Sequence record: PP261279.1
Length of the DNA: 64,000 nucleotides
DNA from: Escherichia phage ECP2303
Reading direction: 5' to 3' (one strand)
Part shown: one piece after another, positions 20,753 through 44,122 of the stretch
Numbering within the stretch: the stretch's first letter is position 1
Layout of the letters: each line of letters opens with the position of its first letter
The notes under the pieces: generated by a model
What the model saw: the letters and a program-made list of their open reading frames with translations, nothing else
What the model was told of the DNA's origin: nothing
Database searches by the model: none
Translations under genes and position numbers: made by a program

Positions 20753-23530
20753 TTAGTGACAATCGCCCCAGTTACGACCGCACAAGTATTCACCTGTGAT
20801 CTGGAACGGAACGCCCATCATTTTAGAAGCCTGCCAGAAGCAATGCACCACCATTTCGCCCACAGGGCTCCAGATAAGTTCAAGCTTTCCGTCATCGTTC
20901 AAGATAGGATCGTATACCGTATTTCCGTCCTTGTCAACCATTTCGTTTCCATCCTCATCTTTGCGTGCCTTTTTGTACTTATGACCGTCGAACACATGAA
21001 GTTTAGCCTCCTGCTTGGCCTTAAATGTTTCCAGCTCTTCAATTGTGTCGAAGGTGTATACGGTTTTATACTTAGGTGTGTCAGGCACTTGAAGCTGATA
21101 TTCGTCATGGTAATAAATAATACGACGAACACCTTCATCATACCATCCACGCTTCACCATTTGGTGGTGCATGAGGATTCCGACCAAGTCGCACAACGAT
21201 GCACCGCCATTTTGCTGATATGCATTAAGCAAAGAGTGTTTAGAGCGGGTCCAAATGGCATGCCCGTCAAAAGAGTAGATAAATTTCTTACCTGTTGCTT
21301 CCCAGAATTTCTCCAGATCCTCTTTACGCCCCTTAAGGCCTGGGTTGGCATCCCAGAGAGCATCAATTACTCTCTGTCCAAGTTCTGGAGAGATATCTAG
21401 CATATCTGCAACTTTATCTTTTTGTGCCCCGTACATAACCCCATATGTGACAGGCTTACCATCGTTACGAGACACCTCTCTACCTGCTACTTTTGTATAT
21501 GCCTCAGCATTGTTTTGGTGCGCGTCCCCGTTACTTACAACATCATAATACAGACCGTTGTCAAACTCAAAGGCACCCCAGGCCCCGATGAGCTGCTCTA
21601 AGTTGGACCCGTCAATACCGATCTCAAAGTATCCCGGAGGAACACCCCACAGACTACGCATCTCTTTACCCATAACCACTTTAGGAGATGGTTTAGGCAT
21701 GTTTGCACAAATACTATGTTTCTGTCTGGAAGTGTTTGTTAATCCAGAACTTTTAGCAGGAAGCTTGTGGTCAATCTTCAAACGTGGATGATTAAGAAGA
21801 CCAGTATCAACCTTATCTTCCTTGATTGGATCAAGGACCGATCTGCGGTTTCGCAATGATAACCACAAAACGATATCTTTAGCCATCTCTCCGTTCAATT
21901 TTTCAAGATTCGGGCACAGGTGTCCAAACGTATCTTTCAGTTGCGGAGAAGTAATAAGCGCTCTGGCTTTTCTACGTATCTTCCCAAACACTTCCTTTTT
22001 AATCCTTTCTGAGTTAGGGAAGCTTCGGAACTTATGCACAGTTGTCTGGAACTTGGCATCAGTTTTGTTCCAGAAGTTGATAATTAGATCACAATACTCT
22101 GACTCTAAAAGCTCGTCCATATATGCATATACTCGTGCATCAACATCTGCATCAGGTAAAGCTTTCTTCTTACTATCCTTAGTTACATCCTTAGTTCTCC
22201 ACATTGTTGGGAGCCAACCAGCACTGATCAGGTATCGCTTGATGTCGTCCTGATTGCTGATTTTCATAGGTATCTTGCAGTCAGGCATTCGCTTCTGCTG
22301 TAGGTCACTTATCGCCTGATCCATCAGCTCTTTAGGTAAAGGGTGTGGTGTAGAAGTTCCTTTGATATACCCCCTCAAGAAATCAGCCATCTTATCGGGG
22401 TCTTTACAGCCCATCTCTTCACACCATTTTATCCCCATCTTACTTACATCCCCTGTGGAGGTAAATGCTCGCTTAGGAGGGGCTTTAAATTCTAAAGCAC
22501 TCATGTCTACAGGATAGCCAAGCTTGTCTTTTAACCATTTCCAACCATTATTGGAGATTGTCCCATCTTGGTTAAACGGCTTTTCAGGGAACTTAGGCCG
22601 TTGAGACATTGATAGCTCTTTTAAAGGAAGTTGTGGTTCAACACGATCAGCGATCTCTTTCATCCACGCATCGCAGCGGTCACGTAAAGCAATAGCCCCA
22701 TCTATGTCGAAATACACCCCCTGTCGAGCCTGCAGCTCCATCAGGAAGTGCTGTAACATGCCTCGGCGTAATGCGTTCTTCCAGGTGATCTTCTTGAAGC
22801 CTTTCGGCTTCTCTTTGGCAGGATCGTACATAAAGTTCTGCATGTCAGATTTGCCGTAGAATACACCTTTTGATTCAGCTACCAACTCCTTCCAGAGCAA
22901 CTCCTGAATGATAACGTCCTCGAACACACGATCCACATACTTCCACAGCGGAAGCTCACGCCAGTCATCGATTTGAACTTTCTGGTTACCAAGGGCATAG
23001 CCCCATGCCATAAGGCCATGAGGCCCAACAGGCTGCATTTTCTTGGTAACTGGATTGAATACTGCGTCCGGACAACCTTTTGGCAAAGGGCGGTCAGGCC
23101 ACAAGATTCGACTCATCGCTAACGTATCAAACAGATTAACCTGGTGGTCGTTGATAGTTCCCATGCATTTAGGATCACGGAACATATCAAAATGAATACC
23201 GGATAATCTTTCCATCAGCATAAAGTCGTAACTGTAGCAGTTATGGCAGTTCAAAGCCGTAGGTGACCAGTCTGAATTGCCTGTAAGCCAGCCTTCCAAC
23301 TCTGAAAAATCTGCTATGCGAGCCTCAAAATCTGTATAAAGGGTCTTCTTTGCCAGAATGAAGTTCTTAGCTTTCTCCACATCCTCTTCAGAGTAGTGTG
23401 TGCGGTCATTTAGGGGAAGGAACAGCATAAAACGGTTCTTATTCAGCTCTTTAAACAAACCGCAGTGATAATAAAGATCTGGGTCTTCCAGCAAGCCAGA
23501 GGCCTCAAAATCGAACGACCACATGCTCAT
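20753..23530 (-). CDS. DNA polymerase, family A, with N-terminal 3'-5' exonuclease domain
   Basis: 925 aa; Exo I-like FDFEASGL; motif A-like GIDGSNLEQL; motif B-like RNDGKPVTYGVMYG; motif C-like IIYYHDEYQL; RBS aaggaga. Confidence 0.9.
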   Translation of the reverse strand: MSMWSFDFEASGLLEDPDLYYHCGLFKELNKNRFMLFLPLNDRTHYSEEDVEKAKNFILAKKTLYTDFEARIADFSELEGWLTGNSDWSPTALNCHNCYSYDFMLMERLSGIHFDMFRDPKCMGTINDHQVNLFDTLAMSRILWPDRPLPKGCPDAVFNPVTKKMQPVGPHGLMAWGYALGNQKVQIDDWRELPLWKYVDRVFEDVIIQELLWKELVAESKGVFYGKSDMQNFMYDPAKEKPKGFKKITWKNALRRGMLQHFLMELQARQGVYFDIDGAIALRDRCDAWMKEIADRVEPQLPLKELSMSQRPKFPEKPFNQDGTISNNGWKWLKDKLGYPVDMSALEFKAPPKRAFTSTGDVSKMGIKWCEEMGCKDPDKMADFLRGYIKGTSTPHPLPKELMDQAISDLQQKRMPDCKIPMKISNQDDIKRYLISAGWLPTMWRTKDVTKDSKKKALPDADVDARVYAYMDELLESEYCDLIINFWNKTDAKFQTTVHKFRSFPNSERIKKEVFGKIRRKARALITSPQLKDTFGHLCPNLEKLNGEMAKDIVLWLSLRNRRSVLDPIKEDKVDTGLLNHPRLKIDHKLPAKSSGLTNTSRQKHSICANMPKPSPKVVMGKEMRSLWGVPPGYFEIGIDGSNLEQLIGAWGAFEFDNGLYYDVVSNGDAHQNNAEAYTKVAGREVSRNDGKPVTYGVMYGAQKDKVADMLDISPELGQRVIDALWDANPGLKGRKEDLEKFWEATGKKFIYSFDGHAIWTRSKHSLLNAYQQNGGASLCDLVGILMHHQMVKRGWYDEGVRRIIYYHDEYQLQVPDTPKYKTVYTFDTIEELETFKAKQEAKLHVFDGHKYKKARKDEDGNEMVDKDGNTVYDPILNDDGKLELIWSPVGEMVVHCFWQASKMMGVPFQITGEYLCGRNWGDCH

Positions 23531-23588: not shown

Positions 23589-25667
23589 TTAAAAAGGTGT
23601 TTCGTCGTCTTCAAAACCAGGAACGTGGTTAGAGGACGGATCATCATACTGAAGATCTTCCTGTGTGTCAACAGGGTTAACAGCAGGAGTTATAACCTTA
23701 TCAGCCACAACCTTGCCCACAGGTGTTTCTACAACTGCATGCTCCTGATCCTCAAACATAGCTTGAGGTCTCCAAACAACCTCTCCACCTTCCCCGTCTG
23801 TAAACATCTGCATCTCTTTATCCCAATACCAATTGCTGGCATCGTGGAACTTGCCTGTGTGGGGATCCATAACTAGGGTGTCCGCAATACCTAAGGTTTT
23901 TGCTGGGCGGTTTTTAAGACCTACCAGCCGGACACGTCCACGGGAACGATCCACCATCTCCTCTGCCTCTACCCCGACAACCACCCAGCTAAGTTGCTCC
24001 AATCCGGCACTACCGCGAAGGTTCTCTTTTCGCACAGGGTACCAGAAAGGTAACGGATTTCCATCCTTATCCTTCGGAGGTACAATCTCTGTGCGCTTCA
24101 GGTGAGCAATCACCAAGATAAACACATTAAACTGCTTACAGAACGCGGCTAGTTGAGTCATAGCCATGTCAAGCTCTTTACGCTCATCCTTAACATTAAG
24201 CCCTGAAATCACCATAGACAAGTGATCCAGCACAATGTAACGGCAGTGATACAGGCACACCATTTGTTTAAGCTTAGTGATCAGCTCATCTACAGGGATG
24301 GAGCCGAAATGCTTGAACACTTTGATTTTTCCGGCCTTGGCCCAAGATTGATGAATCTCAGCGTGCTCCTGATCGGTCAGGAACTGACTGGGGTCTTCAA
24401 CAAACTCTTTAACATCAAACCCCAGCTGGTTAGCGTACAGAGAGTTGATTGCTTCCTCAGGATCCTCTTCAAGGTGAATCAGGCACAGGCGATCATCCTC
24501 TTCATAATCATCAGCTTTAGGGCATGTTGGGTCCATCAAGTATCTTGCAATGCAATGTTCCAGCTTCTTGGCTACAGTTGTTTTACCACCGCCAGACGGG
24601 CCTGTCAGCATCATCAAGGTGCCTTTGTGGAGTCCTTTCAGCATCTTCTGCAGTTTAGGGAACTCTGCACTAATATCCACGCCATTGGAAGTCTTCTTAC
24701 GAAGAGATTCAATGGAGAAGTCTTCTAAATCAGATACAGCATCAGGCACATATTTGACTGGGTGACGGAACATGTTGACAATATCTTCCAGCTTTTTAGC
24801 CTTCAGCATGTCACGAATATCTTTTACACCATCAGGGTCGTTTACCTCACCTGGGTATTCCACGTGGTAAACGTTGTCAGCCATCAAAAATGCTGCGATA
24901 TTATGCGTAGCTTCAACACCTTTGATAACGTGTTTTTGCTTCTCTACCTCGTTAGCTGCATCGTTGTCCATTGCAAGGACTACTGTTCCGTAGCTACGGA
25001 TAAATTTCTCATTGTTCGCAAAAGTGTCTACGGCGTTTGCACACCCGCAGTTAATTCCGACAAAAGGCAGGCATGGTTTTCCTGCCAGATCACCGCCGTT
25101 GATAACTGCATCAATCCCATCCTGGACTTCTTTAGCCCACTGCTTCACCTTCGCTGGGGCTTTAGCATTGGTGAGAATACCTTTTACTTGTACCTGATAT
25201 GCAGCCTGCCACGCTGCAATAACATCTCCTTCCCCCTCACAAACGTTAATCTGCTTGCGGTTGTTGGAGGATGCACACAGCTTTTGACCAAACATCTGGG
25301 AGTTGGCCTTTACTATGCCGACAACCGAGAAATGGCCCCTTTGCTCTTTAGGGATTGTCCAGTCACGCTTTTTAAAGCCAGATAGATTACCGTAGCGGTC
25401 ATAATACGGAAAGTAGGTGGCAGTAACAGTTACGCCATCCTCTTGGGATAGCGATGATCGTACACCAAAATATTGTGCAGCCATCAGTCCAATATTTTGT
25501 TGTGGAACAGGGACAATTTTAGTATTTTCTAAAACAGTCTCTACAGTTTCAACTTCTTTTTCATCACGATAGTCTCGTTTCACACTTCCCCCACTTTTAT
25601 ACTTAGTTGCTTTCGGGTTTGGCTCACCGAAACGGTTGTATGCAGATGCCATGAATTTACTGCCCAT
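23589..25667 (-). CDS. primase-helicase (TOPRIM primase + DnaB-family helicase, T7 gp4-like)
   Basis: 692 aa; TOPRIM-like VCEGEGD and LAMDNDAAN; Walker A LTGPSGGGKTT; VLDHLSMV; IAHLKR; LRGSAGLEQLS. Confidence 0.85.
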   Translation of the reverse strand: MGSKFMASAYNRFGEPNPKATKYKSGGSVKRDYRDEKEVETVETVLENTKIVPVPQQNIGLMAAQYFGVRSSLSQEDGVTVTATYFPYYDRYGNLSGFKKRDWTIPKEQRGHFSVVGIVKANSQMFGQKLCASSNNRKQINVCEGEGDVIAAWQAAYQVQVKGILTNAKAPAKVKQWAKEVQDGIDAVINGGDLAGKPCLPFVGINCGCANAVDTFANNEKFIRSYGTVVLAMDNDAANEVEKQKHVIKGVEATHNIAAFLMADNVYHVEYPGEVNDPDGVKDIRDMLKAKKLEDIVNMFRHPVKYVPDAVSDLEDFSIESLRKKTSNGVDISAEFPKLQKMLKGLHKGTLMMLTGPSGGGKTTVAKKLEHCIARYLMDPTCPKADDYEEDDRLCLIHLEEDPEEAINSLYANQLGFDVKEFVEDPSQFLTDQEHAEIHQSWAKAGKIKVFKHFGSIPVDELITKLKQMVCLYHCRYIVLDHLSMVISGLNVKDERKELDMAMTQLAAFCKQFNVFILVIAHLKRTEIVPPKDKDGNPLPFWYPVRKENLRGSAGLEQLSWVVVGVEAEEMVDRSRGRVRLVGLKNRPAKTLGIADTLVMDPHTGKFHDASNWYWDKEMQMFTDGEGGEVVWRPQAMFEDQEHAVVETPVGKVVADKVITPAVNPVDTQEDLQYDDPSSNHVPGFEDDETPF

Positions 25668-26421
25668 TAATTCTTCTCCTTACTGCAGGCTCGTTTGCTA
25701 AGAATACAGCTCTTGCCCAGCCACGTGGTGTAAGGCTTCGAATCATCTTCGTCCTTGCACTCTTTCCACCTAGCTTAGCGTGTTGCATGGAATAACCACT
25801 AACCACATCAACTATTTGCGGGACAGGTTTTGTGGCGGGGATTATAAATCCATTGCCTATCCAACCGCAAGTTATTTTTGGGTAGGCATCACGTGGAGCT
25901 ATAAATTCAGGAAACCATGGGTTTACATCATCCTCTGGTAGATACCCACCATAATCCGAAGGATGAAAACGGTAATCAGGTTTTCGCCACAGTGTTGACA
26001 TAACTCCTACAGGGTTCTCTACATGCCACGGGCAATCGTAAATCTCTCCCAACTCTTCTGCAACCCGAGCATCTTTCACAGCATCAATTTGGATCAGAGG
26101 ATCCTTAGCCAGCTTTTTCTTAAAGTGTGCAGCTCCGGATACTGCTAAATGCGTGCACGGAGGAAATGCAAGAATAAAGTCTGGAGCTGGGTACATGCAA
26201 AAAGTTTCTTGAGGGAACCACGGGTCAATCCAATAATCCACGTAGTGAATGTTGGAATGATCGGTTATCACCTCTGCATAACTGCCATGGTCAGCACCTT
26301 CTGCGTTAAAGCACAGGCACAGATATCCAGCTTTTGCCCAGTCAATAACTGCACCACCAGACCCGTCAAATAGACTCCACACAACACCTTTGTGGTAGTG
26401 TTCTTTGTAGATAAATTTCAA
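25657..26421 (-). CDS. C5-cytosine methyltransferase-like protein with atypical PPCT catalytic motif
   Basis: Motif order matches C5-MTases: I SLFDGSGG, IV AFPPCTHLAVSG (PCQ is canonical), VI HVENPVG; likely TTG start after RBS aggagg; ORF-track start lies upstream of the terminator hairpin. Confidence 0.55.
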   Translation of the reverse strand: MKFIYKEHYHKGVVWSLFDGSGGAVIDWAKAGYLCLCFNAEGADHGSYAEVITDHSNIHYVDYWIDPWFPQETFCMYPAPDFILAFPPCTHLAVSGAAHFKKKLAKDPLIQIDAVKDARVAEELGEIYDCPWHVENPVGVMSTLWRKPDYRFHPSDYGGYLPEDDVNPWFPEFIAPRDAYPKITCGWIGNGFIIPATKPVPQIVDVVSGYSMQHAKLGGKSARTKMIRSLTPRGWARAVFLANEPAVRRRINGQ

Positions 26422-26438
26422 TTTGCTGCCTCCTAATG

Positions 26439-26467
26439 CAAAAAGCCCCACCCTTTCGGGCAGGGCC
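26439..26467 (-). terminator. rho-independent terminator with GAAA tetraloop (copy 2)
   Basis: Minus-sense gccctgcccGAAAgggtggggc followed by tttttgcatt; near-identical to 16280-16308. Confidence 0.6.
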
Positions 26468-26472
26468 TAGTG

Positions 26473-26955
26473 TTAAACCCGGATACCTATTGTATACTCG
26501 GTGGATACCAATGTCAAATCTAAATTTAAAATTTCTTGCATCTCATAGTATGCATCCAGAGTGAGATACATTTCCCCATCCTCTTCTACATACTTGTCGA
26601 GATGTTTGAGGCACTTTGGATAACTATCAAGGGCAGCTTTTAAGCACTCAAACTCCGTGCTGTTGATGAATCCTTCCATCTTGGCTACCCGTTCTGGAGT
26701 AACAATAGCACTGTAGTGAGATTTAGCTTCCTGAATGCAATGGGTCCAAGCATCAACTTTCTCTTCAAAAAGCCCGAAGAATTTCTTTTTGGTAAGTTTC
26801 AGATTTTTTAAGTGCTTAAGCACTCGGTTGCCGATTACAGCCACATCACGAAACTTAAAGATAACTTTGTCGATATCCTCGCGGCCTATTTTCACAAAGC
26901 AGGCCTTGCACATCTCGGGAGCAGCGTAGCCTACCTTCCACATAAAATCTGACAT
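26473..26955 (-). CDS. hypothetical protein
   Basis: 160-aa ORF. Confidence 0.6.
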   Translation of the reverse strand: MSDFMWKVGYAAPEMCKACFVKIGREDIDKVIFKFRDVAVIGNRVLKHLKNLKLTKKKFFGLFEEKVDAWTHCIQEAKSHYSAIVTPERVAKMEGFINSTEFECLKAALDSYPKCLKHLDKYVEEDGEMYLTLDAYYEMQEILNLDLTLVSTEYTIGIRV

Positions 26956-26967
26956 AACACTCCCTCC

Positions 26968-27366
26968 TTATTCTTGAAAAGCAACGATATCGTATGAGCT
27001 TGCAGACGAGCCGGGTGAAGAGTGGCTCCAGTCTAGATCATCAGAATAGTCAGCATACTGTGCACCACTCCGCAGTTTATATTTTACCCACTTACCTGGT
27101 GCAGGGTTTTCACCACCTTCCCATACTTCCCAACCTTCTGGCAATCCGTCGTCCTGAGAGTTGTCGTCCACCTCACTAATAATCTTAGGGTTTGGAACCA
27201 AGATCCATGCAGGCTCTTCCTTCTTAGCAAGTGTCCACACAATGTATGTGTCTGAGCAGGAGCATGTCAGTAAAGTATACCCACTGTTCAGAGCTTCTGC
27301 AAGCTCTTTTTCAGCATCTTCTAATTTGGTTAGGTGGTATTGGATAATCTTCACATCTGTAATCAT
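26968..27366 (-). CDS. hypothetical protein
   Basis: 132-aa ORF. Confidence 0.6.
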   Translation of the reverse strand: MITDVKIIQYHLTKLEDAEKELAEALNSGYTLLTCSCSDTYIVWTLAKKEEPAWILVPNPKIISEVDDNSQDDGLPEGWEVWEGGENPAPGKWVKYKLRSGAQYADYSDDLDWSHSSPGSSASSYDIVAFQE

Positions 27367-27671
27367 CAGAAACCTCCTGTCTCTTCAGCAAATGCAGCCG
27401 CTGTTGTTGCTGCATCCAGATAGGACTCTAGTTCACGTGCTGCCCGTTTGTAAATCGAGTGGCGCATATCGTTCGGCAGTTGGTGAAAATCCACCTCTTC
27501 TCCGTTGTGGTAAACATGCACATCAGTAATCTGTCTAAATCCATAATAATCAACATCAGAATCACGGCACTCTGGATCTGGCAACTGGACAACTGCCTGA
27601 GCCTCTACAGTGAGCATATTGTCAAGTTCGAAATCGATTTCAAAAGTATATGGTTTATAACGCTTCATCAT
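27366..27671 (-). CDS. hypothetical protein
   Basis: 101-aa ORF. Confidence 0.6.
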   Translation of the reverse strand: MMKRYKPYTFEIDFELDNMLTVEAQAVVQLPDPECRDSDVDYYGFRQITDVHVYHNGEEVDFHQLPNDMRHSIYKRAARELESYLDAATTAAAFAEETGGF

Positions 27672-27727
27672 TCGGTGTTCTCCTTGTCTTGTGTGAAGAG
27701 TAGACCTCTCCTTCGATATTTTAAATA

Positions 27728-29071
27728 TTACTCTAAATCTTCTTCTGAGTCAAGCCTATCTTTCACAACTAAGTTCTGGGCAAGTTTGTAATAACGAAAG
27801 CCCCCACCACCTTGCCAGTTTACAGATTTAGAAATACCACTTTGATCTTCACCATCGATCACTTTTTGCAAGCGTGGAATAATATGGGTATGACAATGAT
27901 CTCCTAGCTCAACCGAGATCCAACGTCTTTTCATCTTGTGAGCTACAGCAGCAGTAGTTCCCGAACCGCCGAATGAATCCAATACTAAATCTCCTTCTCG
28001 CGTACACATTTCTAAAATCCGCTTCAAAAGCGCTTCAGGTTTTTTTCCATTTTTGAAACTAACGCCCCCTTCATTTGCTATTCCATTCCAACTAATGTCA
28101 GTCCAAACATCAGTTATTAGTTCAGCAGGCTGCATCTCACCGTCAATTTCCAAAAGCCTATTGGAATAAAAGACCATTTGCCTACCATTTGCGATATAAA
28201 AGCCTTCGACATCCTCATTTGGATGTACATAAACCTTATCCCTATCTTTCTTTGACTTCTCGATAGTTTCTTTTCTCTTTATTTTGGCACCACCGCCAAT
28301 TGCAACGGATTGAAATACACGTTCTGCATTATCAATTGCAAATTGTGCTAATTCATAATCAAATGTATCAGGCAGTTTTTTCTTGGCTTCTTTTGTATCT
28401 TTATAGCCATTGGCCTTTGCAAACGCATCGGCAATACCGCACCACGTCCAACTTTTATAATGGTCATCTGGGTTTAATAGATATTTGTTATATCCCGTAT
28501 CATACTCTTTAGGTATATAGATTTTGTTAAGTGGTTTCTTGGTACGATCTTTTGCATATACAAGCAAAAAGTTTGCTGTGGAGAAAACTGTAGTTCCTGT
28601 TGCTTTAAAGCCTGAAGGGCAATTTGTAGTCATCGATATGGTATTTAACTGATTTGCACGACCAAAAATCTCGTCCATCAAGACTTTTAAATAAGCCATT
28701 TCGCAGTCATCTAAGTGAACGAATATCACTCCATCATCGCTTAGCAGATTACGAATTATTTCTAATCTGTCCCGCATTAAGCCCAGCCAAATGGAGTGCT
28801 CCAGGCTATCATCGTAGTGCTCAAAATCCCTTCCGGTATTGAATGGCGGGTCTATGTAAACACACTTCACTTTGCCTGCATACTCTTGCTCTAGTGCCTT
28901 CAATGCCAGTAAGTTATCTCCAAAAATCAGTTTATTATCAAAAATATCGTTTTCGGTCACCTTTTTACTGGCGTGATAAGACTTGCTCGAATCTTCTAAC
29001 AAAATGTGAGGCTCTAGCTTTTTGCGCTCGTTCTTACCTATCCAGGTAAGTTCTAATTTGGTTTTACTCAT
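27728..29071 (-). CDS. DNA methyltransferase, beta-class (N6-adenine or N4-cytosine), Type III Mod-like orphan
   Basis: 447 aa; motif IV VYIDPPFNTG before motif I LVLDSFGGSGTTA (beta-class order); N-terminal LIFGDNLLALKAL. Confidence 0.85.
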   Translation of the reverse strand: MSKTKLELTWIGKNERKKLEPHILLEDSSKSYHASKKVTENDIFDNKLIFGDNLLALKALEQEYAGKVKCVYIDPPFNTGRDFEHYDDSLEHSIWLGLMRDRLEIIRNLLSDDGVIFVHLDDCEMAYLKVLMDEIFGRANQLNTISMTTNCPSGFKATGTTVFSTANFLLVYAKDRTKKPLNKIYIPKEYDTGYNKYLLNPDDHYKSWTWCGIADAFAKANGYKDTKEAKKKLPDTFDYELAQFAIDNAERVFQSVAIGGGAKIKRKETIEKSKKDRDKVYVHPNEDVEGFYIANGRQMVFYSNRLLEIDGEMQPAELITDVWTDISWNGIANEGGVSFKNGKKPEALLKRILEMCTREGDLVLDSFGGSGTTAAVAHKMKRRWISVELGDHCHTHIIPRLQKVIDGEDQSGISKSVNWQGGGGFRYYKLAQNLVVKDRLDSEEDLE

Positions 29072-29132
29072 CGTTTGGTGCTCTCCTTAATTTTTGTGGG
29101 GAGGAGTGCCTCCCCTTTATACTCACATCTTA

Positions 29133-29474
29133 CTACTCAAGGTCTTCAGAGTCAAGCTCAAAAAGAATCAAACTGTGCATGCCTGCAGAGAGATCAACAC
29201 ACCCTGCAACAATAAGGGTTTGATAGTAAGGTTCAGCACCCTCAATATCTTCGTTAAAATCCACAACAAGGTAGTCACCTTTGTTAAAGGTGTATTTGTC
29301 CGATGTAAACGCAAAACCTGCCCAGTCACCTACTGCAGGATCTTTATCAGTCACCTTTGTTAGCAGTAGATCTTTTTCACGAGATCTTTTAGTAAAATCG
29401 TGAATCACAACATCCTTCTCTTCAGGAGTCGGATTGCCACACACGTAGTTAACGATATTTCTCCACAAACTCAT
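29133..29474 (-). CDS. hypothetical protein
   Basis: 113-aa ORF; 4-nt overlap with the Dda-like gene. Confidence 0.6.
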   Translation of the reverse strand: MSLWRNIVNYVCGNPTPEEKDVVIHDFTKRSREKDLLLTKVTDKDPAVGDWAGFAFTSDKYTFNKGDYLVVDFNEDIEGAEPYYQTLIVAGCVDLSAGMHSLILFELDSEDLE

Positions 29475-30841
29475 ACGTCCCCCTTTTCTGCTCTAGTTTC
29501 AAAATCTTTCCTGACTTTCTCGTCTAAGCCAGGAAAAGTTGTATTATAAAACTCTACGACTCTCGGGTCAACAATAATATCCACCTCTCTTAATGGACGC
29601 AACAAGTTTATTCCTTGTATCGTCTTAACCCGACTCAAGGCAACATACGTCATTCCGGGAGAGAAAGCTCCGTTCTTTCCGAGGTCCAGGTTGTAACAAT
29701 CTAGCGTAAGTCCTTGACTTTTATGTGATGTTACTGCGTACCCTGATTTCAAAGGGAGTTGCTCATAAGACCCGATCACAACCCTCTCTATGAACTTCTC
29801 CATCTTCCTTTCGGCAATATTGTACCTCTGGGAAGGTTTGTACTCGTTATTCTCCCACAATCTCGGCTCAATTTCAACCTGTGCCCCGTCTTCCAGCTCA
29901 ACTACTACAGATTTGGTCTTGAATTTTACCACTGTGGCGCGTGTCCCGTTGACATAGTACGGAACTTTGTGGGTAGGGTCAACATCGTTTGAGGTTATCA
30001 TAACCTTCATCCCTATCTTCAGCCTCATTTCCTGCTCCACAGGCAGTGTGGAAGGGAACTTACCTTTCATTTTACCAATGTAGGTCTTCTCTGGGGCCTT
30101 GATGGCATCATAGAAACGTCTGTTCACCTCCTCTGCTTGCTTATTGGTGGCACAGATGGTCAAGGCATCTGTTGGGACACCACCATGATAGCAACGAGTG
30201 TTAAGCTCTGCTACAACCTCTTTTATGCGACGACCTTCACGAACACAGTTCAACATTGTGGCGAAGCGAACAGATTCCTGACGGAACTGGTCTACTAAGG
30301 CTATATTGTGAAGATTAAGATCCTCCCAAGATTTTGTATAGCAACACAGATCTGTGTGGTAGAAGTTGAAGTAGGCCTCCTTCTCCATAGAAGAGACAAC
30401 TGGAGGTGCTTGGTAGAAGTCTCCAAACAATAACACCTGAATGCCTCCGAAAGGCTTGTCATTTTTCCGAAGAAAGCGGAGTTTTCTATCCATCTCTATG
30501 AACTTGTCAGCACGGATCATGGAGATTTCATCGATAATTAGGATGGTAAATGCCTTGCTTTTCAGAGGCTTTGCTGTTTTTGCCCTTATTGCTGTCCAGT
30601 CTGACTCCATGCTCACACCTGCGGCAAGATCGAAAGTTCGGTGAGCTGTTGCTCCATTAACGTTTAAAGCGGCTACCCCTGTCGGGGCAACCGTTATGCA
30701 AGAGTCTCCATACATGGACTGGATTATGTTGATAAGATATGTCTTCCCTGTTCCACCAGGTCCACTTACGAAGACATTCTCACCGCTCATGATTGCAACA
30801 AGGGCAGCATCTGTGCCTACATCGTACTGCCCTTTTTCCAT
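29471..30841 (-). CDS. dda: SF1B DNA helicase, Dda/Pif1/RecD-like
   Basis: 456 aa; Walker A GPGGTGKTY; VAPTGVAA; Walker B DEISMI; VTSHKSQGLTLD. Confidence 0.8.
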   Translation of the reverse strand: MEKGQYDVGTDAALVAIMSGENVFVSGPGGTGKTYLINIIQSMYGDSCITVAPTGVAALNVNGATAHRTFDLAAGVSMESDWTAIRAKTAKPLKSKAFTILIIDEISMIRADKFIEMDRKLRFLRKNDKPFGGIQVLLFGDFYQAPPVVSSMEKEAYFNFYHTDLCCYTKSWEDLNLHNIALVDQFRQESVRFATMLNCVREGRRIKEVVAELNTRCYHGGVPTDALTICATNKQAEEVNRRFYDAIKAPEKTYIGKMKGKFPSTLPVEQEMRLKIGMKVMITSNDVDPTHKVPYYVNGTRATVVKFKTKSVVVELEDGAQVEIEPRLWENNEYKPSQRYNIAERKMEKFIERVVIGSYEQLPLKSGYAVTSHKSQGLTLDCYNLDLGKNGAFSPGMTYVALSRVKTIQGINLLRPLREVDIIVDPRVVEFYNTTFPGLDEKVRKDFETRAEKGDV

Positions 30842-32082
30842 TACGCCTCCTCGTAGATAATGTCGATAGTGTTACCGTCGCGGTCAACCACGTACTCAAT
30901 TGGGTCGCCATCTTTGCGTGATTCTGGAGCTACTACGATTTCGTAGCGGCATGCACGGCACTTGGCACTGTTGTGTTGGTAAGGCACACTAACTACATCA
31001 GCAGGGTCAACCATAACCGTCATCACAGTTCCATAGCTCTTTGCATACTCTTTGCTGGCACAGTGCAGGCCATAAGAGCATGCAGCTTCCGGATCATCCT
31101 CTACAAAGTTACGGGGCATGGATACAAAAGCCCCCTGGTATTGTGGGACTTTACCACTGTGCCAATCCACCCACTTGTCGCCGTTAAACTGAACCCCTTT
31201 GTAGCAAATGATTCGACCATCTTCTGCAATCTGAATGTCGTTTGCCTGCATAAAATCGTAGAGCATGTTTACAGATTTTGCAGAAGGATTGCGTAGCAGG
31301 CGAACGAGGAATTTCACATAGCGGTCATCCAGTGTTCCGTCTGCATAATCTTTCTCAATTTTCTTTGCAATGGTGGATCGCATCTCTACACCGTAGTAGT
31401 AGAGCTTACCATCTTTCATGATCAGGTTGTCTGCAAGTGTGGTGAACTCATTCTTGCGTTCCAGCCAGACAAGGATTTCACCAATTGCCTCGTCATATTC
31501 CTGAACAGAGATATGTTCGAAGACTTTCTGGTAAACTTCCTCGCTTTCACTGCGGCGAATTTCAAAAATACCTTCGTTGCAGGTGATCTGGAGGAGTTCC
31601 CCGCAAATAACCACCAAAGGCTCGATGCTTCGGGTCTGTTGCTGAGACACACTGCTCACCACCTCCAGCACCGGGTCTTTGACTTCTACTAAAGGTTCTT
31701 CTGACTTGATTGCTACCCCAGTGAACCCTACACCGTGAACAACACACAGCGGATATACCACGCCCCAACGTTTAACGGAACCTTCTCCTAAATCTAAGAT
31801 CATGGCGTACTTACCGTTATCTTCCAGCCCATATCGAAATAAACGGGCCTCTTCACGGGTTTCAAAATCCTCACGGGTGTAGCAGACGCTGTCACGGTCA
31901 GGATCGAACAACTCTGGGGCACCTACTGCCAGTGTCCAGGTTGTGTTACCTTTCTCAATAGCGCATGTGAAACCCTTCTTCTCAAGCTCTGCACGGCGGT
32001 CACGTGCTTCTTTACGAGTTTTGAAATGTTCGTAGATGAAAATCATCTTGGTCTCCTTATTTGATGTTATTCTTTGTATCAA
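30841..32082 (-). CDS. hypothetical protein (possible rIIB-like partner of the upstream GHKL protein)
   Basis: 413 aa; start overlaps the end of the GHKL gene by 26 nt; rIIB assignment rests on gene order only. Confidence 0.55.
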   Translation of the reverse strand: MIQRITSNKETKMIFIYEHFKTRKEARDRRAELEKKGFTCAIEKGNTTWTLAVGAPELFDPDRDSVCYTREDFETREEARLFRYGLEDNGKYAMILDLGEGSVKRWGVVYPLCVVHGVGFTGVAIKSEEPLVEVKDPVLEVVSSVSQQQTRSIEPLVVICGELLQITCNEGIFEIRRSESEEVYQKVFEHISVQEYDEAIGEILVWLERKNEFTTLADNLIMKDGKLYYYGVEMRSTIAKKIEKDYADGTLDDRYVKFLVRLLRNPSAKSVNMLYDFMQANDIQIAEDGRIICYKGVQFNGDKWVDWHSGKVPQYQGAFVSMPRNFVEDDPEAACSYGLHCASKEYAKSYGTVMTVMVDPADVVSVPYQHNSAKCRACRYEIVVAPESRKDGDPIEYVVDRDGNTIDIIYEEA

Positions 32083-34039
32083 TCAGTTCACGGTATTCAA
32101 TCATAGCAGGAGTGTCCCAATATTTCAAGCCTACATGCTTCAAAAGTGGATATTTCTTTTCCAATCTTGCAATATAGGCCTTCCCGCACTTAACCCGGTT
32201 GGCGATTAAGATTTTGGCACGATGATTTAGCTCACCGTACTTCCACGTGGTGCTACCTTCCCACTTGTGAAAATGTGGCCGATAACTTCCAAAATCCTGC
32301 ATGGGGATAATTTTACCTAACTGTCTGTACAGGCTGTCATATGAAGTTTCATTTGCTGCGCGAGTTAGTAAGAATTTCCAAGCATCCTCTTTCAACAAAT
32401 GTTCCACATTCTTCTCTGTAACATATTGGCAATCAGGATCAGTCCAAAGCAGACGAGATTCCGACACCAGGTACAGATCTTCCCCTTCAGGAATCTGGAG
32501 TGCCGCACGCACACGGTCATAATCTTGCTGGTAGATGTTGCTCATCTGCCCTAGCCAACAACTTCCGCGTTGGATATCCCCCTCATACGGTATGCAGTGC
32601 TTAATCTTCCTGAACTCTGCCTTAGTAATACGCTCACGCCGGAAGTAACCATCCTTCTCAAGTTTTTTAACCCAATAGCCTGGTTCGTAACGGGTTTTGG
32701 TTTCACCTTTCTTCGTAGGTCGGCGTGGAAGCTCCGATAACAATTTGACCGTATCTGCAAAAAACGGATGGTGTGCCGCCTCTTTAAACTCTTTCACCAG
32801 ATCCGTGTTACGGCAATAGAAAACGTTGCGTCCGGTAATCTCGCTTAAGTAGTTACACTTATTCCGGTTATATTTGCCGTCTCCGTCGTTAAATACTAAA
32901 TAAACTCCCCGTAAGAATTCTACCTTTCCGTAGCAGGCGTAACCTATGCGGCCTTTATTTAAGCCGCCAGCGAAGATCTCGCAGTCCCCCAAATTTCCTA
33001 GCCCTGTTTCTTCCCAGCGGTCATACATAAAATTCTTACCGAAGATGTGCCCGAACACTCCACTGTTCTTCATCATCTCGCGTGCTTCTGAGGATGTTTT
33101 TGCTGTCTCCAGTTCTGCAACAACTTCTGCTCCACGAAGGCGAATGCCTTCTTTGACAAAAGCTTCCAAACGCTCTTGGAATCCACCATCGTCGTGACCT
33201 TCTATGGTCCATTCACGCCCTGGGTTAATATTGCAATCTCCGATAGGGATCTCTACACAAATTGCAGGATAATCTATTAGTGTCTCCAGGAACTTAGAAC
33301 GGTAAGGTTGGTGACCCATTACCACACGACTCTCGTCAGAGCTGGTATAACCCTTCAGGATGGTCATTTTCCAACCATCCTTCTCGTAGTGATACTGCGC
33401 CTCAACCTTGTCACCTTCCAGCATCTTACTGGTCATAGGGTCGGTAACGGTAAACGGAAACTTTGCATAGCGTAGGCATGACGCAATAGCAGTGCGATAT
33501 TTCAGGACATGCTCTTTCTTAACATGGAACTGAACTTTTACCCCGTTGTGCTCTTCAGTCTTCCGCTCGCGGATCTTGGTAACGTTTGGGATACCCTGAT
33601 CCAAGAACAATAGATATGTGCTTTCAACACCATTGTGCACACTGATAACATCGAAAGTGTCCACCATGCTGAACGGAGCCTTTGAACCAACACCTTTATT
33701 ACCTACCAGAGCGTTGCTGTTGCGCTTGGTTGACTCCCCGAGGTTCATGAAAGTGTTGCGGACCATCTCTTCTGACATGCCCAATCCAACGTCCTGCACA
33801 AAGAAGTATGGTTCAAGGTCTGTAGGGGAGTGAATGATGATCGGTACATCACCCCGTCCAGACTCAACATGAGAGTCCACAGCATTGAAGATTGGTTCAC
33901 GGCAGCTTGCCAGCACCTTATCTTCGTAAATCCCTTTAATGATTAGCCCAAAAGTCTCTTTGTTCAGAGAAATTGAGCCCCTGGTGACCTCCATATTTCC
34001 GGTTAGTACTGCTTTAGTTTCATTACTGTTTACAATCAT
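32057..34039 (-). CDS. GHKL-type ATPase domain protein (Hsp90/MutL/histidine-kinase-like fold; rIIA-like)
   Basis: 660 aa; N-box REPIFNAVDS, G1 VQDVGLGMS, G2 GNKGVGSKAPF in GHKL order and spacing. Confidence 0.6.
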   Translation of the reverse strand: MIVNSNETKAVLTGNMEVTRGSISLNKETFGLIIKGIYEDKVLASCREPIFNAVDSHVESGRGDVPIIIHSPTDLEPYFFVQDVGLGMSEEMVRNTFMNLGESTKRNSNALVGNKGVGSKAPFSMVDTFDVISVHNGVESTYLLFLDQGIPNVTKIRERKTEEHNGVKVQFHVKKEHVLKYRTAIASCLRYAKFPFTVTDPMTSKMLEGDKVEAQYHYEKDGWKMTILKGYTSSDESRVVMGHQPYRSKFLETLIDYPAICVEIPIGDCNINPGREWTIEGHDDGGFQERLEAFVKEGIRLRGAEVVAELETAKTSSEAREMMKNSGVFGHIFGKNFMYDRWEETGLGNLGDCEIFAGGLNKGRIGYACYGKVEFLRGVYLVFNDGDGKYNRNKCNYLSEITGRNVFYCRNTDLVKEFKEAAHHPFFADTVKLLSELPRRPTKKGETKTRYEPGYWVKKLEKDGYFRRERITKAEFRKIKHCIPYEGDIQRGSCWLGQMSNIYQQDYDRVRAALQIPEGEDLYLVSESRLLWTDPDCQYVTEKNVEHLLKEDAWKFLLTRAANETSYDSLYRQLGKIIPMQDFGSYRPHFHKWEGSTTWKYGELNHRAKILIANRVKCGKAYIARLEKKYPLLKHVGLKYWDTPAMIEYRELIDTKNNIK

Positions 34040-34536
34040 TTATTGCGCTCCTTGTAGTAGATATGACTCCCGAACTGAGCTGTCCTCTGCATCTTTTTTG
34101 CCCATTTCGGTCGTACTTTGGTTGTATGGTAGTGTGTTGCTCCACCTGTTATGTCCATAGCCATGTATGCAACATGGTTGTTATTATAGACCTTTAGAAG
34201 CATCTTTGCAAGACTTTTAGCGTGATCCCATGAATCTTTTTCTGTCACCTTAAAAGTTTTGCCGTGGTTTGTCCACGAAAACTGGTTAGGTTGGTAGACA
34301 ATCTTTCTTATGGTGTCTGGGTATTTGGGGTGAGATTTCCTGTTTAGGGTGGCAAACCCAGATGCCAGCATACCCATCGTGCCATCCCCTCTAGCTTCCC
34401 TGTAGATATTGCATGCTAGAATGTTTTCCTTAGTATCTGATGGCTTGCAAGTATGGTATACTTTTTGTTTTGGTGCTGCAACAACAGGCAGCGATAAAAA
34501 TGCGCTCAAAATAATAGCAAAGATCTTAATTTTCAC
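34036..34536 (-). CDS. secreted cell-wall hydrolase, SleB/CwlJ-like
   Basis: 166 aa; signal peptide MKIKIFAIILSAFLSLPVVAA; NIYREARGDG...ATLNR...YQPNQFSW matches the SleB-type signature; probable GTG start. Confidence 0.65.
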   Translation of the reverse strand: MKIKIFAIILSAFLSLPVVAAPKQKVYHTCKPSDTKENILACNIYREARGDGTMGMLASGFATLNRKSHPKYPDTIRKIVYQPNQFSWTNHGKTFKVTEKDSWDHAKSLAKMLLKVYNNNHVAYMAMDITGGATHYHTTKVRPKWAKKMQRTAQFGSHIYYKERNK

Positions 34537-34554: not shown

Positions 34555-34576
34555 ATCCCCGCCGAAGCGGGGGAGG
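34555..34576 (-). terminator. terminator/attenuator hairpin
   Basis: Minus-sense cccccgcttcggcgggg followed by attttctattt; same stem-loop as 60698-60713. Confidence 0.45.
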
Positions 34577-34975: not shown

Positions 34976-36160
34976 TTAAGCTTTAGCCAAAATGGCGCTA
35001 AACTCTTCACCAAACTCTTTTACAATCTTCATCAGGTTTGGGTATGCTTTGATCAGCTGAGCAACGATCTTGTCACGACCTTTACCGATAAGCAAGGCAT
35101 TTCCTAAGGCATTAGGTTTCATCATCGCCATAAAGACTGAAAATACAAAATCTCGGTTCTCGTCCTTGAAGTTTTCCCAAAGGAAATCGAGAAAGTTTGC
35201 CACACAGCTAACAAGATCTTCGTCGGAGATACTTGCATTTTCCATCATATTACGAATAGCGATGCAACCTTCAGATCCAAGAATCCACAAGATGTCTGGC
35301 TGTTTAGGACCTACGTATTCTTTGCAACCTCCTGCCATAATCCGACCGATTTCCGGTAAGTTGCGTTTCTTGGTGTGGTAAGTCCAGATCTCTACCGCTG
35401 CAGTGTGACCAATAGCACCTTGCAGAAGAACACGGGCCATAGCGTCAGAAATAATACCGCTGTCAAAATCGTGCAAGATATCAGATGCAGCAACCCAAGA
35501 TCGCGGTGTGGCAAAAGATGGACAATTAATCTCAGCCATGGCCTCATAATTATCGATAGCTGATGGAACTCTTTTCAGATATCCAATTACAGAGGAGTGC
35601 ACCCCATTAAGGAATGCGTAGTCCTCAATAAACACCTCTGCATTGCTTGTAACCTCTACAATGATAAAACGGTTAGCCAGAGGGGCTTCGAGCGCCGAAA
35701 GAACCGCACCATCTGTAGAACGGTTACCAGCAGCCACAAAAACAGACCCCTTAGGGAATGCATAAGTACCGCACTTGTGGTCAAGCATAATTTGCATTGC
35801 AACCTTTTGTAGGTAGTTATCTGCATGAGTGAGCTCATCCAGAAAGATAATTCCGCTCCAGTCAGGATCCGCAGGCCAAAATTCTGGAATTGCAAACACT
35901 GTACGTGTAGTTCCATCCGCTTCTACAGGGATAGGTAGCCCAGATAAGTCGGCAGGATCTTTATCTGACAGCCGCACGTCAACAAGGTTGTCATCTCGCT
36001 CACCGAACATATTATCAGCGATCTGCTTCATCACCTGGCTTTTACCTACACCCATTGGTCCCAAAATTAGGACAGATCGGCTATGACGTTGGGCAAACTG
36101 AATAATAGCTGGCAACTCACGGACAGTGATTTGACCACTTTCGAATACGTTTCTTGACAT
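34976..36160 (-). CDS. MoxR-like AAA+ ATPase (AAA_5-type)
   Basis: 394 aa; Walker A LILGPMGVGKSQ; Walker B IIFLDELTHA; AAGNRS. Confidence 0.75.
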   Translation of the reverse strand: MSRNVFESGQITVRELPAIIQFAQRHSRSVLILGPMGVGKSQVMKQIADNMFGERDDNLVDVRLSDKDPADLSGLPIPVEADGTTRTVFAIPEFWPADPDWSGIIFLDELTHADNYLQKVAMQIMLDHKCGTYAFPKGSVFVAAGNRSTDGAVLSALEAPLANRFIIVEVTSNAEVFIEDYAFLNGVHSSVIGYLKRVPSAIDNYEAMAEINCPSFATPRSWVAASDILHDFDSGIISDAMARVLLQGAIGHTAAVEIWTYHTKKRNLPEIGRIMAGGCKEYVGPKQPDILWILGSEGCIAIRNMMENASISDEDLVSCVANFLDFLWENFKDENRDFVFSVFMAMMKPNALGNALLIGKGRDKIVAQLIKAYPNLMKIVKEFGEEFSAILAKA

Positions 36161-36429
36161 TAGTAAAAGTCCTCTACTTGTGTGTAAGTGTTTTCAAAGT
36201 TTTCCAAAACAGATATCACATCGGATCTGTCAATATCATACGTGACTCTCCAGTTGTACGCAACCCTTTCTGCTGTTGCCTCTTCTGGCGCTAGTCGTCT
36301 GCTGGCATAAAAGAGTGTTGGAGTACACTTTCTTGCTTGCCCTCTAACTTTCCCATAATAATATCTGTGAATATCTTTGTCAAAATTTAACTCTTTTTCT
36401 GCACGAAGTTCATATTGCTGGTATAACAT
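36160..36429 (-). CDS. hypothetical protein
   Basis: 89-aa ORF; ATGA overlap with the MoxR-like gene. Confidence 0.55.
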   Translation of the reverse strand: MLYQQYELRAEKELNFDKDIHRYYYGKVRGQARKCTPTLFYASRRLAPEEATAERVAYNWRVTYDIDRSDVISVLENFENTYTQVEDFY

Positions 36430-37762: not shown

Positions 37763-38657
37763 TCTCCGCGTAAATTAAACTGGAATCAGTATACTTCTTT
37801 AATGGGTAAATATCCTGTCCATAGATGCAATCATTAAACACCTCATCTACCCAAAGGCTACGCTTATATCCCATCATTTCTAAAACACTCATCTCTTCTT
37901 CGGTAAACTTATCACCACTCTTGCAAGATGTCAATACCTCATTTTGAACTCTTGCTACCTCGAATCGGTTATTGGCAATATCGCTATTGGCGATCAAATA
38001 CTCACCTAGAGGGTGTGCGGCATTAAAGATGCACAGTGGACGGCTGACGTAATAGTCTCCGGGTGTATAAAAATTGTTGAGGTCTTTCACTAGAACATTC
38101 TTATCAGTCACTTCATTTATAACATCATGCATATCGCACATCTTTATATGTTTGAGGATTCCATCTCCCATCACAAAATAAAAACTTGCTGAGACACTTT
38201 CGGCATAGATCTTACTAGATCCGTTGTAGTTGTATTTTACTCGGATGCTAACGGGGGTTTTTCCTGTCGCGTTAGCCATCATCCAAAGAAATGGCAGCTC
38301 ATACTTCTCCTCTGAGGAAACAAAAGGTGAGGTAGCCAGAGATCGAAAACCTCCAGAGAAGTTGAAAGTTACAGAACCGCTCCGGCGGTATGATACCGCG
38401 TATTCTACTTTTATATCGACGTACCCATTGGAATAGGTGTGTCCTTCATTATCTAAATATGTCCACTTATCAGACCCAGATACCAATCTACGCTCAATAA
38501 CCTTCATCACTACAGGAATTAGTGGGTTGGTACAAACCGCTTTTGAAGTAGCTTTATCATCTAAAGCCTCGTAAATTGCAGAAAGGATGTCCCCAGCTGA
38601 AAGATTGGTTGTTATGTCCTGTTTCCACCGCGTACTAAAACTGTTAAGATTTGCCAT
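37737..38657 (-). CDS. hypothetical protein (first gene of the leftward operon)
   Basis: 306-aa ORF directly downstream of the minus-strand promoter at 38698-38726. Confidence 0.65.
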   Translation of the reverse strand: MANLNSFSTRWKQDITTNLSAGDILSAIYEALDDKATSKAVCTNPLIPVVMKVIERRLVSGSDKWTYLDNEGHTYSNGYVDIKVEYAVSYRRSGSVTFNFSGGFRSLATSPFVSSEEKYELPFLWMMANATGKTPVSIRVKYNYNGSSKIYAESVSASFYFVMGDGILKHIKMCDMHDVINEVTDKNVLVKDLNNFYTPGDYYVSRPLCIFNAAHPLGEYLIANSDIANNRFEVARVQNEVLTSCKSGDKFTEEEMSVLEMMGYKRSLWVDEVFNDCIYGQDIYPLKKYTDSSLIYAEIDYDEVMW

Positions 38658-38697
38658 AAGTAAGTGCTCCTATGTTAGTTTTCTTTCGAATGGGTGC

Positions 38698-38726
38698 ACT
38701 ATATTGTGGAGTTAGAGTAAAGTCAA
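38698..38726 (-). promoter_or_regulatory. sigma70-like promoter for the leftward operon
   Basis: Minus-sense TTGACT-17 nt-TATAGT. Confidence 0.6.
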
Positions 38727-38745
38727 CACGTTTTTGATGTTGACA
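38722..38745. promoter_or_regulatory. operator-like inverted repeat shared by the divergent promoters
   Basis: GTCAACAcgtttttgaTGTTGAC overlapping both -35 elements. Confidence 0.45.
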
Positions 38746-38768
38746 TCTGTTGAGACAATTGATACGAT
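38740..38768 (+). promoter_or_regulatory. sigma70-like promoter for the rightward operon
   Basis: TTGACA-17 nt-TACGAT. Confidence 0.55.
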
Positions 38769-38799
38769 TTCTTCACTTACAGAGCACGAGAGACGACGC

Positions 38800-39777: not shown

Positions 39778-39810
39778 TGACAGGGGCCATTGGCCCCTTC
39801 TGGAGTTTTA

Positions 39811-41271: not shown

Positions 41272-41286
41272 GAGAGGATGTTATTT

Positions 41287-41807: not shown

Positions 41808-41808
41808 T

Positions 41809-42042: not shown

Positions 42043-42058
42043 CAAAAAGGAGATAGCC

Positions 42059-42750: not shown

Positions 42751-42752
42751 TC

Positions 42753-44117: not shown

Positions 44118-44122
44118 GAGCC

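Follow-up and report, generated by a model that had tools for sequence, protein, structure and literature searches.

Genomes of the genus Vequintavirus, the rV5-like myoviruses, contain a well-known block of replication and host-takeover genes. In rV5/V5 (NC_011041), FV3 and the BASEL phages Bas51-59, genes of this block are already labelled as rIIA, rIIB, DNA helicase, N6-adenine or Type III Mod methyltransferase, and Dcm-like C5 methyltransferase. The curated record of the BASEL phage Bas55 gives the order as DNA polymerase, primase/helicase, Dcm-like C5 methyltransferase, three hypothetical genes, N6-adenine methyltransferase, one hypothetical gene, DNA helicase, rIIB, rIIA, cell-wall hydrolase, one small hypothetical gene and MoxR ATPase. 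Here we analyse the equivalent 8,383 bases of Escherichia phage ECP2303, namely positions 25657 to 34039 of a 64,000-nucleotide (nt) piece of record PP261279.1, the whole of which we call the window. A preliminary description of this DNA had considered that two orphan methyltransferases, a helicase, an unknown protein and a GHKL ATPase encoded there could form a restriction-like defence or counter-defence module, with separate phage functions as the conservative reading. We conclude that these 8.4 kb belong, with high probability, to the conserved arm of the Vequintavirus genome that serves replication and host takeover, where four independent functions are neighbours through the gene order of the lineage. 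The region has been known and annotated for years; what had been sighted are real genes, with labels that were partly wrong.

Over this stretch, Escherichia phage ECP2309 (PP464953.1, genus Vequintavirus) shows 100% identity; the whole window corresponds to PP464953.1:460-64459, and 121 phage records align to the 8,383 bases at 90-100% identity. Compared with the Vequintavirus genomes named above, the stretch has 90-100% DNA identity, identical gene order and no difference of substance. All open reading frames (ORFs) claimed earlier are present on the minus strand with the outer limits given then. The clustering of five large genes is likewise true, yet it is the usual gene order of this phage lineage. 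Our analysis is based on identities, conserved catalytic residues, predicted folds, gene order, patterns of presence and absence, and published fitness measurements, whereas every biochemical activity and target named below is a prediction. The five large genes, with protein lengths in amino acids (aa), are:

25657..26421, minus strand: orphan gene for a minimal C5-cytosine methyltransferase-like protein, 254 aa (phrog_757); its 3' end overlaps the primase/helicase start by 11 nt
27728..29071, minus strand: accessory gene for a predicted orphan Type III Mod-like, beta-class N6-adenine methyltransferase, 447 aa (PF01555, E 1e-43)
29471..30841, minus strand: Pif1-family SF1B DNA helicase, 456 aa (PF05970, phrog_325); its start shares one base with the rIIB stop
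30841..32046, minus strand: rIIB, 401 aa from ATG 32046, with two N-terminal repeats of ~50 aa and the conserved rIIB C-terminal domain (phrog_609, phrog_36818, phrog_3803)
32057..34039, minus strand: rIIA, 660 aa, with an N-terminal GHKL ATPase domain, a putative second, transducer-like domain and an rIIA-type C-terminal region

The public labels of this region are uneven. The GenBank record of ECP2309 gives 'hypothetical protein' for the DNA polymerase (20753-23530), the C5 methyltransferase (25657-26421) and rIIB (30841-32046), and calls an 89-aa ORF at 36160-36429 'ATPase'; curated relatives label these genes correctly. In addition, 16 unannotated 'Campylobacter phage' records of the series MG0656xx (e.g., MG065646, MG065674 and MG065635) have ~92% identity to the stretch and are probably mislabelled or contaminant genomes.

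In phage T4, rIIA and rIIB shield infected cells against lambda RexAB and similar abortive-infection systems. The window resembles T4 in that the two genes are adjacent and co-directional with rIIA first, rIIB following directly downstream on the same strand (rIIA stop 32057, rIIB ATG 32046), and this order is also found in Seunavirus and Felixounavirus. The GHKL domain of rIIA and the C-terminal domain of rIIB are directly similar to their T-even counterparts. The differences are that identity to the T-even proteins is 28-37% and limited to one domain per protein, that rIIB has two extra N-terminal repeats, that the pair has its place in the replication arm, flanked by a SleB-like hydrolase and the helicase, and that rIIA and rIIB mutants of the BASEL phage Bas54 are without defect in both hosts examined.

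The 660-aa protein previously described as a GHKL ATPase does contain a GHKL domain (an N-terminal match to PF13589), and its label is corrected here to rIIA over its full length, residues 1-658 matching positions 1-724 of 725 in the phrog_612 model at E 2e-123. Direct similarity to T-even rIIA in a tblastn search covers residues 9-190 only (28% identity, E ~1e-15). The ATP-binding residues of the N-box, G1 and G2 motifs, namely E48/N52/D55, D83xGxG87 and G113/G116/G118, are invariant in 31 homologues. A Foldseek search of viral predicted structures aligned the rIIA model as a whole protein with rIIA of the T4-like phages KVP40 and 44RR2.8t (730-760 columns, E ~1e-31), and the model also aligns with the fused RIIA-RIIB protein of RB43 (1,049 aa, Q56C47). 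A sequence search found no relatives of solved structure for either rIIA or rIIB. Structural comparison of the rIIA model gave the following scores and aligned lengths:

Hsp90 / TRAP1: 16.0, aligned length 309
Phage T6 topoisomerase II ATPase: 14.0, aligned length 262
MutL N-terminal domain: about 13, aligned length about 205
MORC2: 12.1, aligned length 261

The Bergerat fold is taken to span roughly 180 residues. Because the aligned lengths are greater than this, the GHKL fold of rIIA would be followed by a second, transducer-like domain, as in Hsp90, Topo II, MutL and MORC. The preliminary description had asked whether the protein has an rIIA-like C-terminal region or an S5/transducer domain. 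The rIIA-like region is present, as the full-length alignment with T4-like rIIA models demonstrates; the transducer domain is suggested by the aligned lengths and is compatible with the rIIA C-terminal region rather than an alternative to it.

The supposed unknown protein of 413 aa is rIIB, which matches phrog_609 (E 1.4e-61) and four further rIIB PHROGs, the five together ranging from E 1e-61 to 6e-21. Residues 172-371 have 36.8% identity to rIIB of RB27 and other T-even phages (E 1e-30), and identity to Seunavirus rIIB is 35%. The overlap with the GHKL gene reported earlier is an artefact of extending the ORF to TTG 32082. The junction reads TAA-GGAGACCAAG-ATG, with a spacer of 10 nt after the rIIA stop and ATG 32046 located 7 nt after AGGAG, and because of this site and spacer rIIB is taken to start without overlapping rIIA. 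The 401-aa form starting at ATG 32046 is annotated in all GenBank records inspected. As a side observation, residues ~1-100 of rIIB form two ~50-aa repeats with the motif F-x-[TS]-R-x-E-A-R, as do those of Seunavirus rIIB (L003 12992-14230); they give a weak, sub-threshold SPOR match (E 0.0015), and the similarity to T-even rIIB is restricted to the C-terminal half. A resemblance between the N-terminus of the 132-aa protein encoded nearby and the rIIB repeat was dropped as too weak (E 0.018 in a single comparison).

We infer a joint action of rIIA and rIIB from two observations: in some phages (RB43) they form a single fused polypeptide, and phrog_609 is matched both by the N-terminus of rIIA and by the C-terminus of rIIB. 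By homology to T4, rIIA, as a GHKL ATPase with intact ATP-binding motifs, would act with rIIB against abortive infection of the RexAB type; in the BASEL raw data wild-type Vequintaviruses plate at ~1 on RexAB. The rII genes are a classic case of counter-defence against RexAB, and only in this long-known sense would the term be right for the pair.

The methyltransferase encoded at 27728..29071 was correctly described as beta class. DPPF (74-77) precedes FGGSGTT (367-373), and PF01555 (E 1e-43) is the only significant Pfam family; no alpha-class, Dam-type model is matched in the Pfam and NCBIfam lists. The closest described systems are the Mod subunits of Type III restriction enzymes. The protein shares with them the beta-class order of motifs, matches the PADLOC model MTase_III with 674 bits (E 4e-203) over model positions 2-445 of 575, and aligns with H. 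pylori Mod (6k0w) and EcoP15I Mod (4zcf). It differs in that the match begins ~50 residues into the solved Mod chains and stops at position 445, leaving the C-terminal region of a full-length Mod unmatched: the protein ends ~75 residues past motif I, whereas EcoP15I Mod runs ~190 further. A second difference is that there is no adjacent Res subunit. The neighbours of the gene encode proteins of 113 and 101 aa, the nearby helicase is of the SF1B Pif1 type, and the annotations of the first 50 kb of the window, like the Bas54 gene table, list no restriction enzyme. Since no Res gene is present, the product is, as judged from its sequence, an orphan, C-terminally shorter Mod-like methylase that is not of the Dam type.

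A third difference from the Type III systems is that the gene is a dispensable cassette bounded by direct repeats. Of the 121 matching records, 86 have it and 35 (about a quarter) lack it. Many otherwise collinear Vequintavirus genomes cover only 84% of the query, Bas59 being the one inspected at the junction; there the Mod-like gene is absent and the genes for the 101-aa and 113-aa proteins adjoin directly. The edges of the cassette are:

27663..27684, no strand assigned: 22-nt direct repeat, copy 1, in the ribosome-binding site (RBS) and start-codon region of the 101-aa gene (repeat family D10)
29066..29087, no strand assigned: 22-nt direct repeat, copy 2, in the RBS and start-codon region of the methyltransferase gene (repeat family D10)

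A scan for repeats from 25 to 35 kb of the window found, except for family D10, only short repeats at chance level. The two copies are spaced 1,403 nt apart in ECP2309, and the alignment with Bas59 has a gap of ~1.4 kb with a single hybrid copy of the repeat at the junction. Because the gap is bounded by the repeat and closed over a single copy in Bas59, the accessory gene appears to be gained or lost by short-homology recombination, i.e., the 1.4-kb cassette would move in or out through recombination between the short repeats of the RBS regions. Outside Vequintavirus, no phage reaches 60% identity to the Mod-like protein; the 42 records that come next all fall below this value and are mainly Campylobacter phages at 37-45%.

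The Mod-like enzyme presumably methylates a short asymmetric site in phage DNA and would thereby block some cognate restriction system. Naturally occurring phages with and without the cassette can be compared in the BASEL raw data, where the plating efficiency on EcoPI is ~1e-3 to 1e-2 for the methyltransferase-positive phages Bas53, Bas54 and Bas55 and ~1e-3 for the methyltransferase-negative Bas59, and where all Vequintaviruses are equally restricted by EcoRI, EcoRV and EcoCFT_II. The methylase is ruled out as a cause of differences in sensitivity to EcoPI, Bas53, Bas54 and Bas55 being restricted as strongly as Bas59. Because the natural plus and minus phages are restricted alike, the enzyme protects against none of the tested systems; the published plating data show no protective effect of the cassette against any of the six restriction systems used, and the lack of EcoPI protection is a further difference from Type III Mod. 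Elsewhere in the genome, Vequintaviruses encode a third, small 'N6-adenine-methyltransferase 2' (Bas54 105178-105711), and because it is far from this cluster, the methylases of these phages are scattered through the genome.

The second orphan methylase belongs to the C5-cytosine family. The earlier identification of a C5-methyltransferase-like protein agrees with a match to phrog_757 (E 1.6e-86), with C5 motifs and with a predicted C5-methyltransferase fold. Its start is most likely TTG 26421, with AGGAGG 7 nt before it, which gives 254 aa in the predicted translation; GTG 26451 was rejected as a start on the grounds that it falls within a strong terminator-like hairpin. An alignment of 25 homologues shows P87-P88-C89 and E135-N-P-V138 to be invariant, the G20 and S21 of motif I (F18-D-G-S-G22) to be nearly invariant, and the motif IX-like RSLTPRG to be invariant or nearly so. 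Fifteen of the 25 homologues match PF00145 (best E 1.3e-6). The predicted structure (predicted local distance difference test score 89.8, predicted template-modelling score 0.89) has as its top Foldseek matches in the PDB the catalytic domains of DNMT3A and DNMT3B (E 6e-6, probability 1.0, template-modelling (TM) score ~0.5), together with the prophage methyltransferase 3g7u. Sequence alone gives no significant link to solved C5-methyltransferases: the E value is 0.37 with the single sequence and 0.71 when the family profile is compared with M.HaeIII. The family identity is settled because homologues match PF00145 and because of the fold.

Compared with the C5 DNA methyltransferases as a whole (PF00145; Dcm, M.HaeIII, DNMT3) and with phrog_757, the protein has in common motif I, the PC and ENV motifs, RSLTPRG and the Rossmann-type C5-methyltransferase fold. 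It differs in being much shorter (225-260 aa in this group), in its minimal target-recognition region and in falling below the Pfam thresholds. There are 4,182 detectable homologues, and the best-scoring 120 are almost all 219-262 aa long. Judged by its motifs and predicted fold, the 254-aa protein is a Dcm-like enzyme of minimal size and of a type common among phages, with predicted activity. The preliminary description had allowed that both methylases might match well-known phage Dam and Dcm families, which is right for this widespread mini C5-methyltransferase and wrong for the other, Mod-like enzyme.

One may ask whether such a protein is a DNA m5C methylase at all, or whether it carries out another C5 modification or acts on RNA. 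Its shortness would fit the latter possibilities, with only ~90 residues from the ENV motif to RSLTPRG, as would the missing Pfam match of its own, the E value of 0.7 with the M.HaeIII profile and the modest TM-scores to DNMT3. We consider them quite improbable, however, given the invariant PPC catalytic Cys and ENPV, the conserved motif I and the PF00145 matches of its homologues. Moreover, the best structural matches are all DNA C5-methyltransferases, including DNMT3A/B, whose target-recognition regions are also very small, and the gene lies beside replication genes with no accessory modification genes nearby. As a minimal C5-cytosine methylase, encoded beside the primase/helicase gene in two genera, the protein presumably methylates phage DNA during replication, and both orphan methylases presumably pre-methylate phage DNA against restriction systems.

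The helicase was previously called Dda-like, a name that is true at the level of the superfamily only. It belongs to the Pif1 family (PF05970, E 1.3e-33): residues ~20-434 align with solved Pif1 chains at E 1e-54 to 3e-65, whereas a search of the PDB at E<=1e-3 retrieved no chain of T4 Dda, and both T4 Dda and RecD2 are distant. The protein also matches phrog_325 (E 1e-110), whose 'Dda-like' label is a broad family name. It has an intact P-loop and the SF1B core in common with the Pif1 helicases of Bacteroides and Thermus, to which it can be aligned along its full length; the difference is that the present helicase is encoded by a phage and translationally coupled to rIIB, a coupling found in two genera. 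The Seunavirus orthologue at the same position is 50% identical, and the rV5 orthologue gp237 was called a PIF1-like helicase in 2013 (PMC3606486).

Published fitness data allow a comparison of the five genes in Bas54. According to HIDEN-SEQ on E. coli K-12, rIIA, rIIB, the helicase, the N6-methyltransferase and the C5-methyltransferase are non-essential (10.1101/2025.11.20.689424, supplementary file 9), while the adjacent primase/helicase and polymerase are essential (10.1101/2025.11.20.689424). The '311' data set of the same study compares K-12 with a uropathogenic isolate, and there only the helicase is depleted among the five, with a log2 fold change (log2FC) of -6.32, as against -0.01 for rIIA, -0.34 for rIIB, +0.43 for the N6-methyltransferase and -0.07 for the C5-methyltransferase (10.1101/2025.11.20.689424). 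The identity of the isolate is ambiguous, as sheet 'Data S6' is titled 'K-12_vs_CFE303', the command line names a '311' input, and the next sheet has identical numbers (10.1101/2025.11.20.689424). Because only the helicase is depleted in the clinical isolate, the genes have no shared phenotype.

The helicase would be an accessory 5'-3' helicase of replication or recombination, dispensable on K-12 and needed in at least one clinical host. Beyond this it might be a host-specific counter-defence or host-range factor, which could strip a defence protein or structure off the phage DNA or stand in for a host helicase that is missing or sequestered in some strains. Such a role would account for an orthologue (bas54_0068) that is non-essential on K-12, with 66 of 73 TA sites hit, and strongly depleted in the data set from the clinical isolate (the adjusted p is given as 0; 10.1101/2025.11.20.689424), as are the anti-defence genes bas54_0063 (MoxR) and bas54_0140. 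On the other hand, the evidence comes from one data set whose sheet title and input-file name disagree and includes no knockout matched to a defence system. The authors credit anti-DS-28 activity to MoxR and bas54_0140 only, and the main text of their paper never mentions the bas54_0068 result (10.1101/2025.11.20.689424). Dependence on an accessory helicase could equally stem from host replication physiology and not from immunity. We therefore regard a counter-defence or host-range role as rather unlikely and prefer that of a replication or recombination accessory.

How these genes are distributed among relatives argues for separate functions. The Seunavirus phages SalP219 and GAP31, with 35-59% identity at the protein level, keep the cell-wall hydrolase, rIIA, rIIB, helicase, small ORFs, C5-methyltransferase, primase/helicase and polymerase, and have no Mod-like gene at this locus. 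Certrevirus CB7 is reported to be without rIIA/rIIB and to have two methylases at unlinked positions (PMC7344957). Felixounavirus has the rIIA-rIIB pair with neither helicase nor methylase nearby. When nine proteins of the stretch and MoxR were scanned with PADLOC, no match was found at the level of a system, and components specific to composite systems such as DISARM and BREX (DrmA/B/C, BrxC, PglZ, Res) were absent; the only matches were to the generic models MTase_III, MTase_II and oMTase and partial P-loop matches of the helicase, with nothing for rIIA, rIIB, the C5-methyltransferase or the small ORFs.

Some bacterial defence loci combine a GHKL ATPase with a helicase and a methylase. This general knowledge underlies the proposal that the five genes are one phage-borne, restriction-like module for defence or counter-defence, in which the methylases would mark self DNA and the helicase and GHKL ATPase would act jointly on foreign DNA or on a host system. 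The genes are indeed co-directional and close together, and the orthologue of the neighbouring MoxR ATPase is an experimentally supported anti-defence gene in Bas54. Against this, 1) no nuclease or Res gene is present and PADLOC returns only generic methyltransferase and P-loop matches, 2) the GHKL protein and its partner are plain rIIA/rIIB, 3) the Mod-like gene is absent from about a quarter of close relatives and from the Seunavirus locus with the remainder unchanged, while rIIA/rIIB are absent in Certrevirus, 4) the fitness phenotypes are unlinked, and 5) terminator-like hairpins and intergenic gaps divide the units. With components that separate in relatives, no PADLOC system and differing phenotypes in Bas54, the proposal is largely refuted, and we regard a single module as extremely improbable. 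The rII homology and the separability of the genes support the conservative reading of separate methylases, helicase and rIIA/rIIB; clear rIIA/rIIB homology with standard synteny, which the preliminary description had named as the mark of ordinary phage genes, is what we find.

Some observations fit less well with four separate functions. From SleB through rIIA, rIIB and the helicase to the 113-aa protein (p113), the stop of each gene overlaps or nearly abuts the start of the next, an arrangement kept in two genera; because of this the run from SleB to p113 is likely to be co-expressed, and the rII pair and the helicase may have some functional link. The conditional essentiality of the helicase in one clinical isolate is left unexplained by this view. 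As regards the methylases, whose protective role is putative, the BASEL study describes Vequintavirinae as 'exceptionally susceptible' to the restriction-modification systems tested (PMC8594841). The C5-methyltransferase-like protein has no Pfam match at E<=0.01, and literature searches on rV5-like E. coli phages turned up neither methylomes nor restriction digests that would bear on methylase activity or its action on DNA.

The remaining features of the stretch and its upstream flank are small genes and hairpins, of the latter the two strongest terminator-like ones being taken:

26443..26468, minus strand: terminator-like hairpin of 11 pairs with a T-run, between the 160-aa ORF and the C5-methyltransferase gene
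26473..26955, minus strand: 160-aa protein (phrog_12900, E 1e-111); no Pfam, PADLOC or NCBIfam match; Bas54 orthologue scored 'reduced fitness'
26968..27366, minus strand: 132-aa protein (phrog_11995, E 2e-84); Bas54 orthologue non-essential
27366..27671, minus strand: 101-aa protein (phrog_4240, E 6e-33); Bas54 orthologue non-essential
29133..29474, minus strand: 113-aa protein (phrog_11869, E 2e-78); its start overlaps the helicase stop by 4 nt; Bas54 orthologue scored 'intermediate'
34036..34536, minus strand: SleB-like cell-wall hydrolase (PF07486, E 2e-19); its stop overlaps the rIIA start by 4 nt
34572..34557: terminator-like hairpin upstream of the SleB-like gene

Comparison of the 113-aa and 132-aa proteins found no similarity. 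The SleB-like gene is the first of the tightly packed run described above, and its position is kept in Seunavirus. A promoter scan gave 33 candidates against 27.2 +/- 5.7 in shuffled sequence, which is not above expectation. An rII pair stands beside a murein hydrolase in two unrelated groups, namely Vequintavirinae, where the SleB-like gene overlaps the start of rIIA, and Felixounavirus, where an SLT-domain transglycosylase directly follows rIIB (L006 3658-4206). Two genes upstream of rIIA, the minus strand of the window encodes a MoxR-type AAA ATPase (34976-36160), whose Bas54 orthologue bas54_0063 is reported to be an anti-defence gene against the predicted system 'DS-28' (log2FC -7.23; 10.1101/2025.11.20.689424). 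Farther on, the sign of the GC skew switches at ~38000-46000 of the window, where a block of plus-strand genes (38738-45482) lies within the otherwise minus-strand arm. The block includes genes annotated as anti-termination/anti-sigma factor and HNH endonuclease/metallopeptidase, and a divergent promoter-like region is found at ~38.7 kb.

The analysis is useful mainly in closing off a false lead: side by side, a GHKL ATPase, a helicase and two methylases mimic a defence island, and here they are ordinary genes of rV5-like phages. The Mod-like cassette, naturally present or absent among near-identical phages, provides a ready-made comparison for discovery of its target site. For phage biologists, the point of use is that the orthologue of the helicase is conditionally essential in one published data set.

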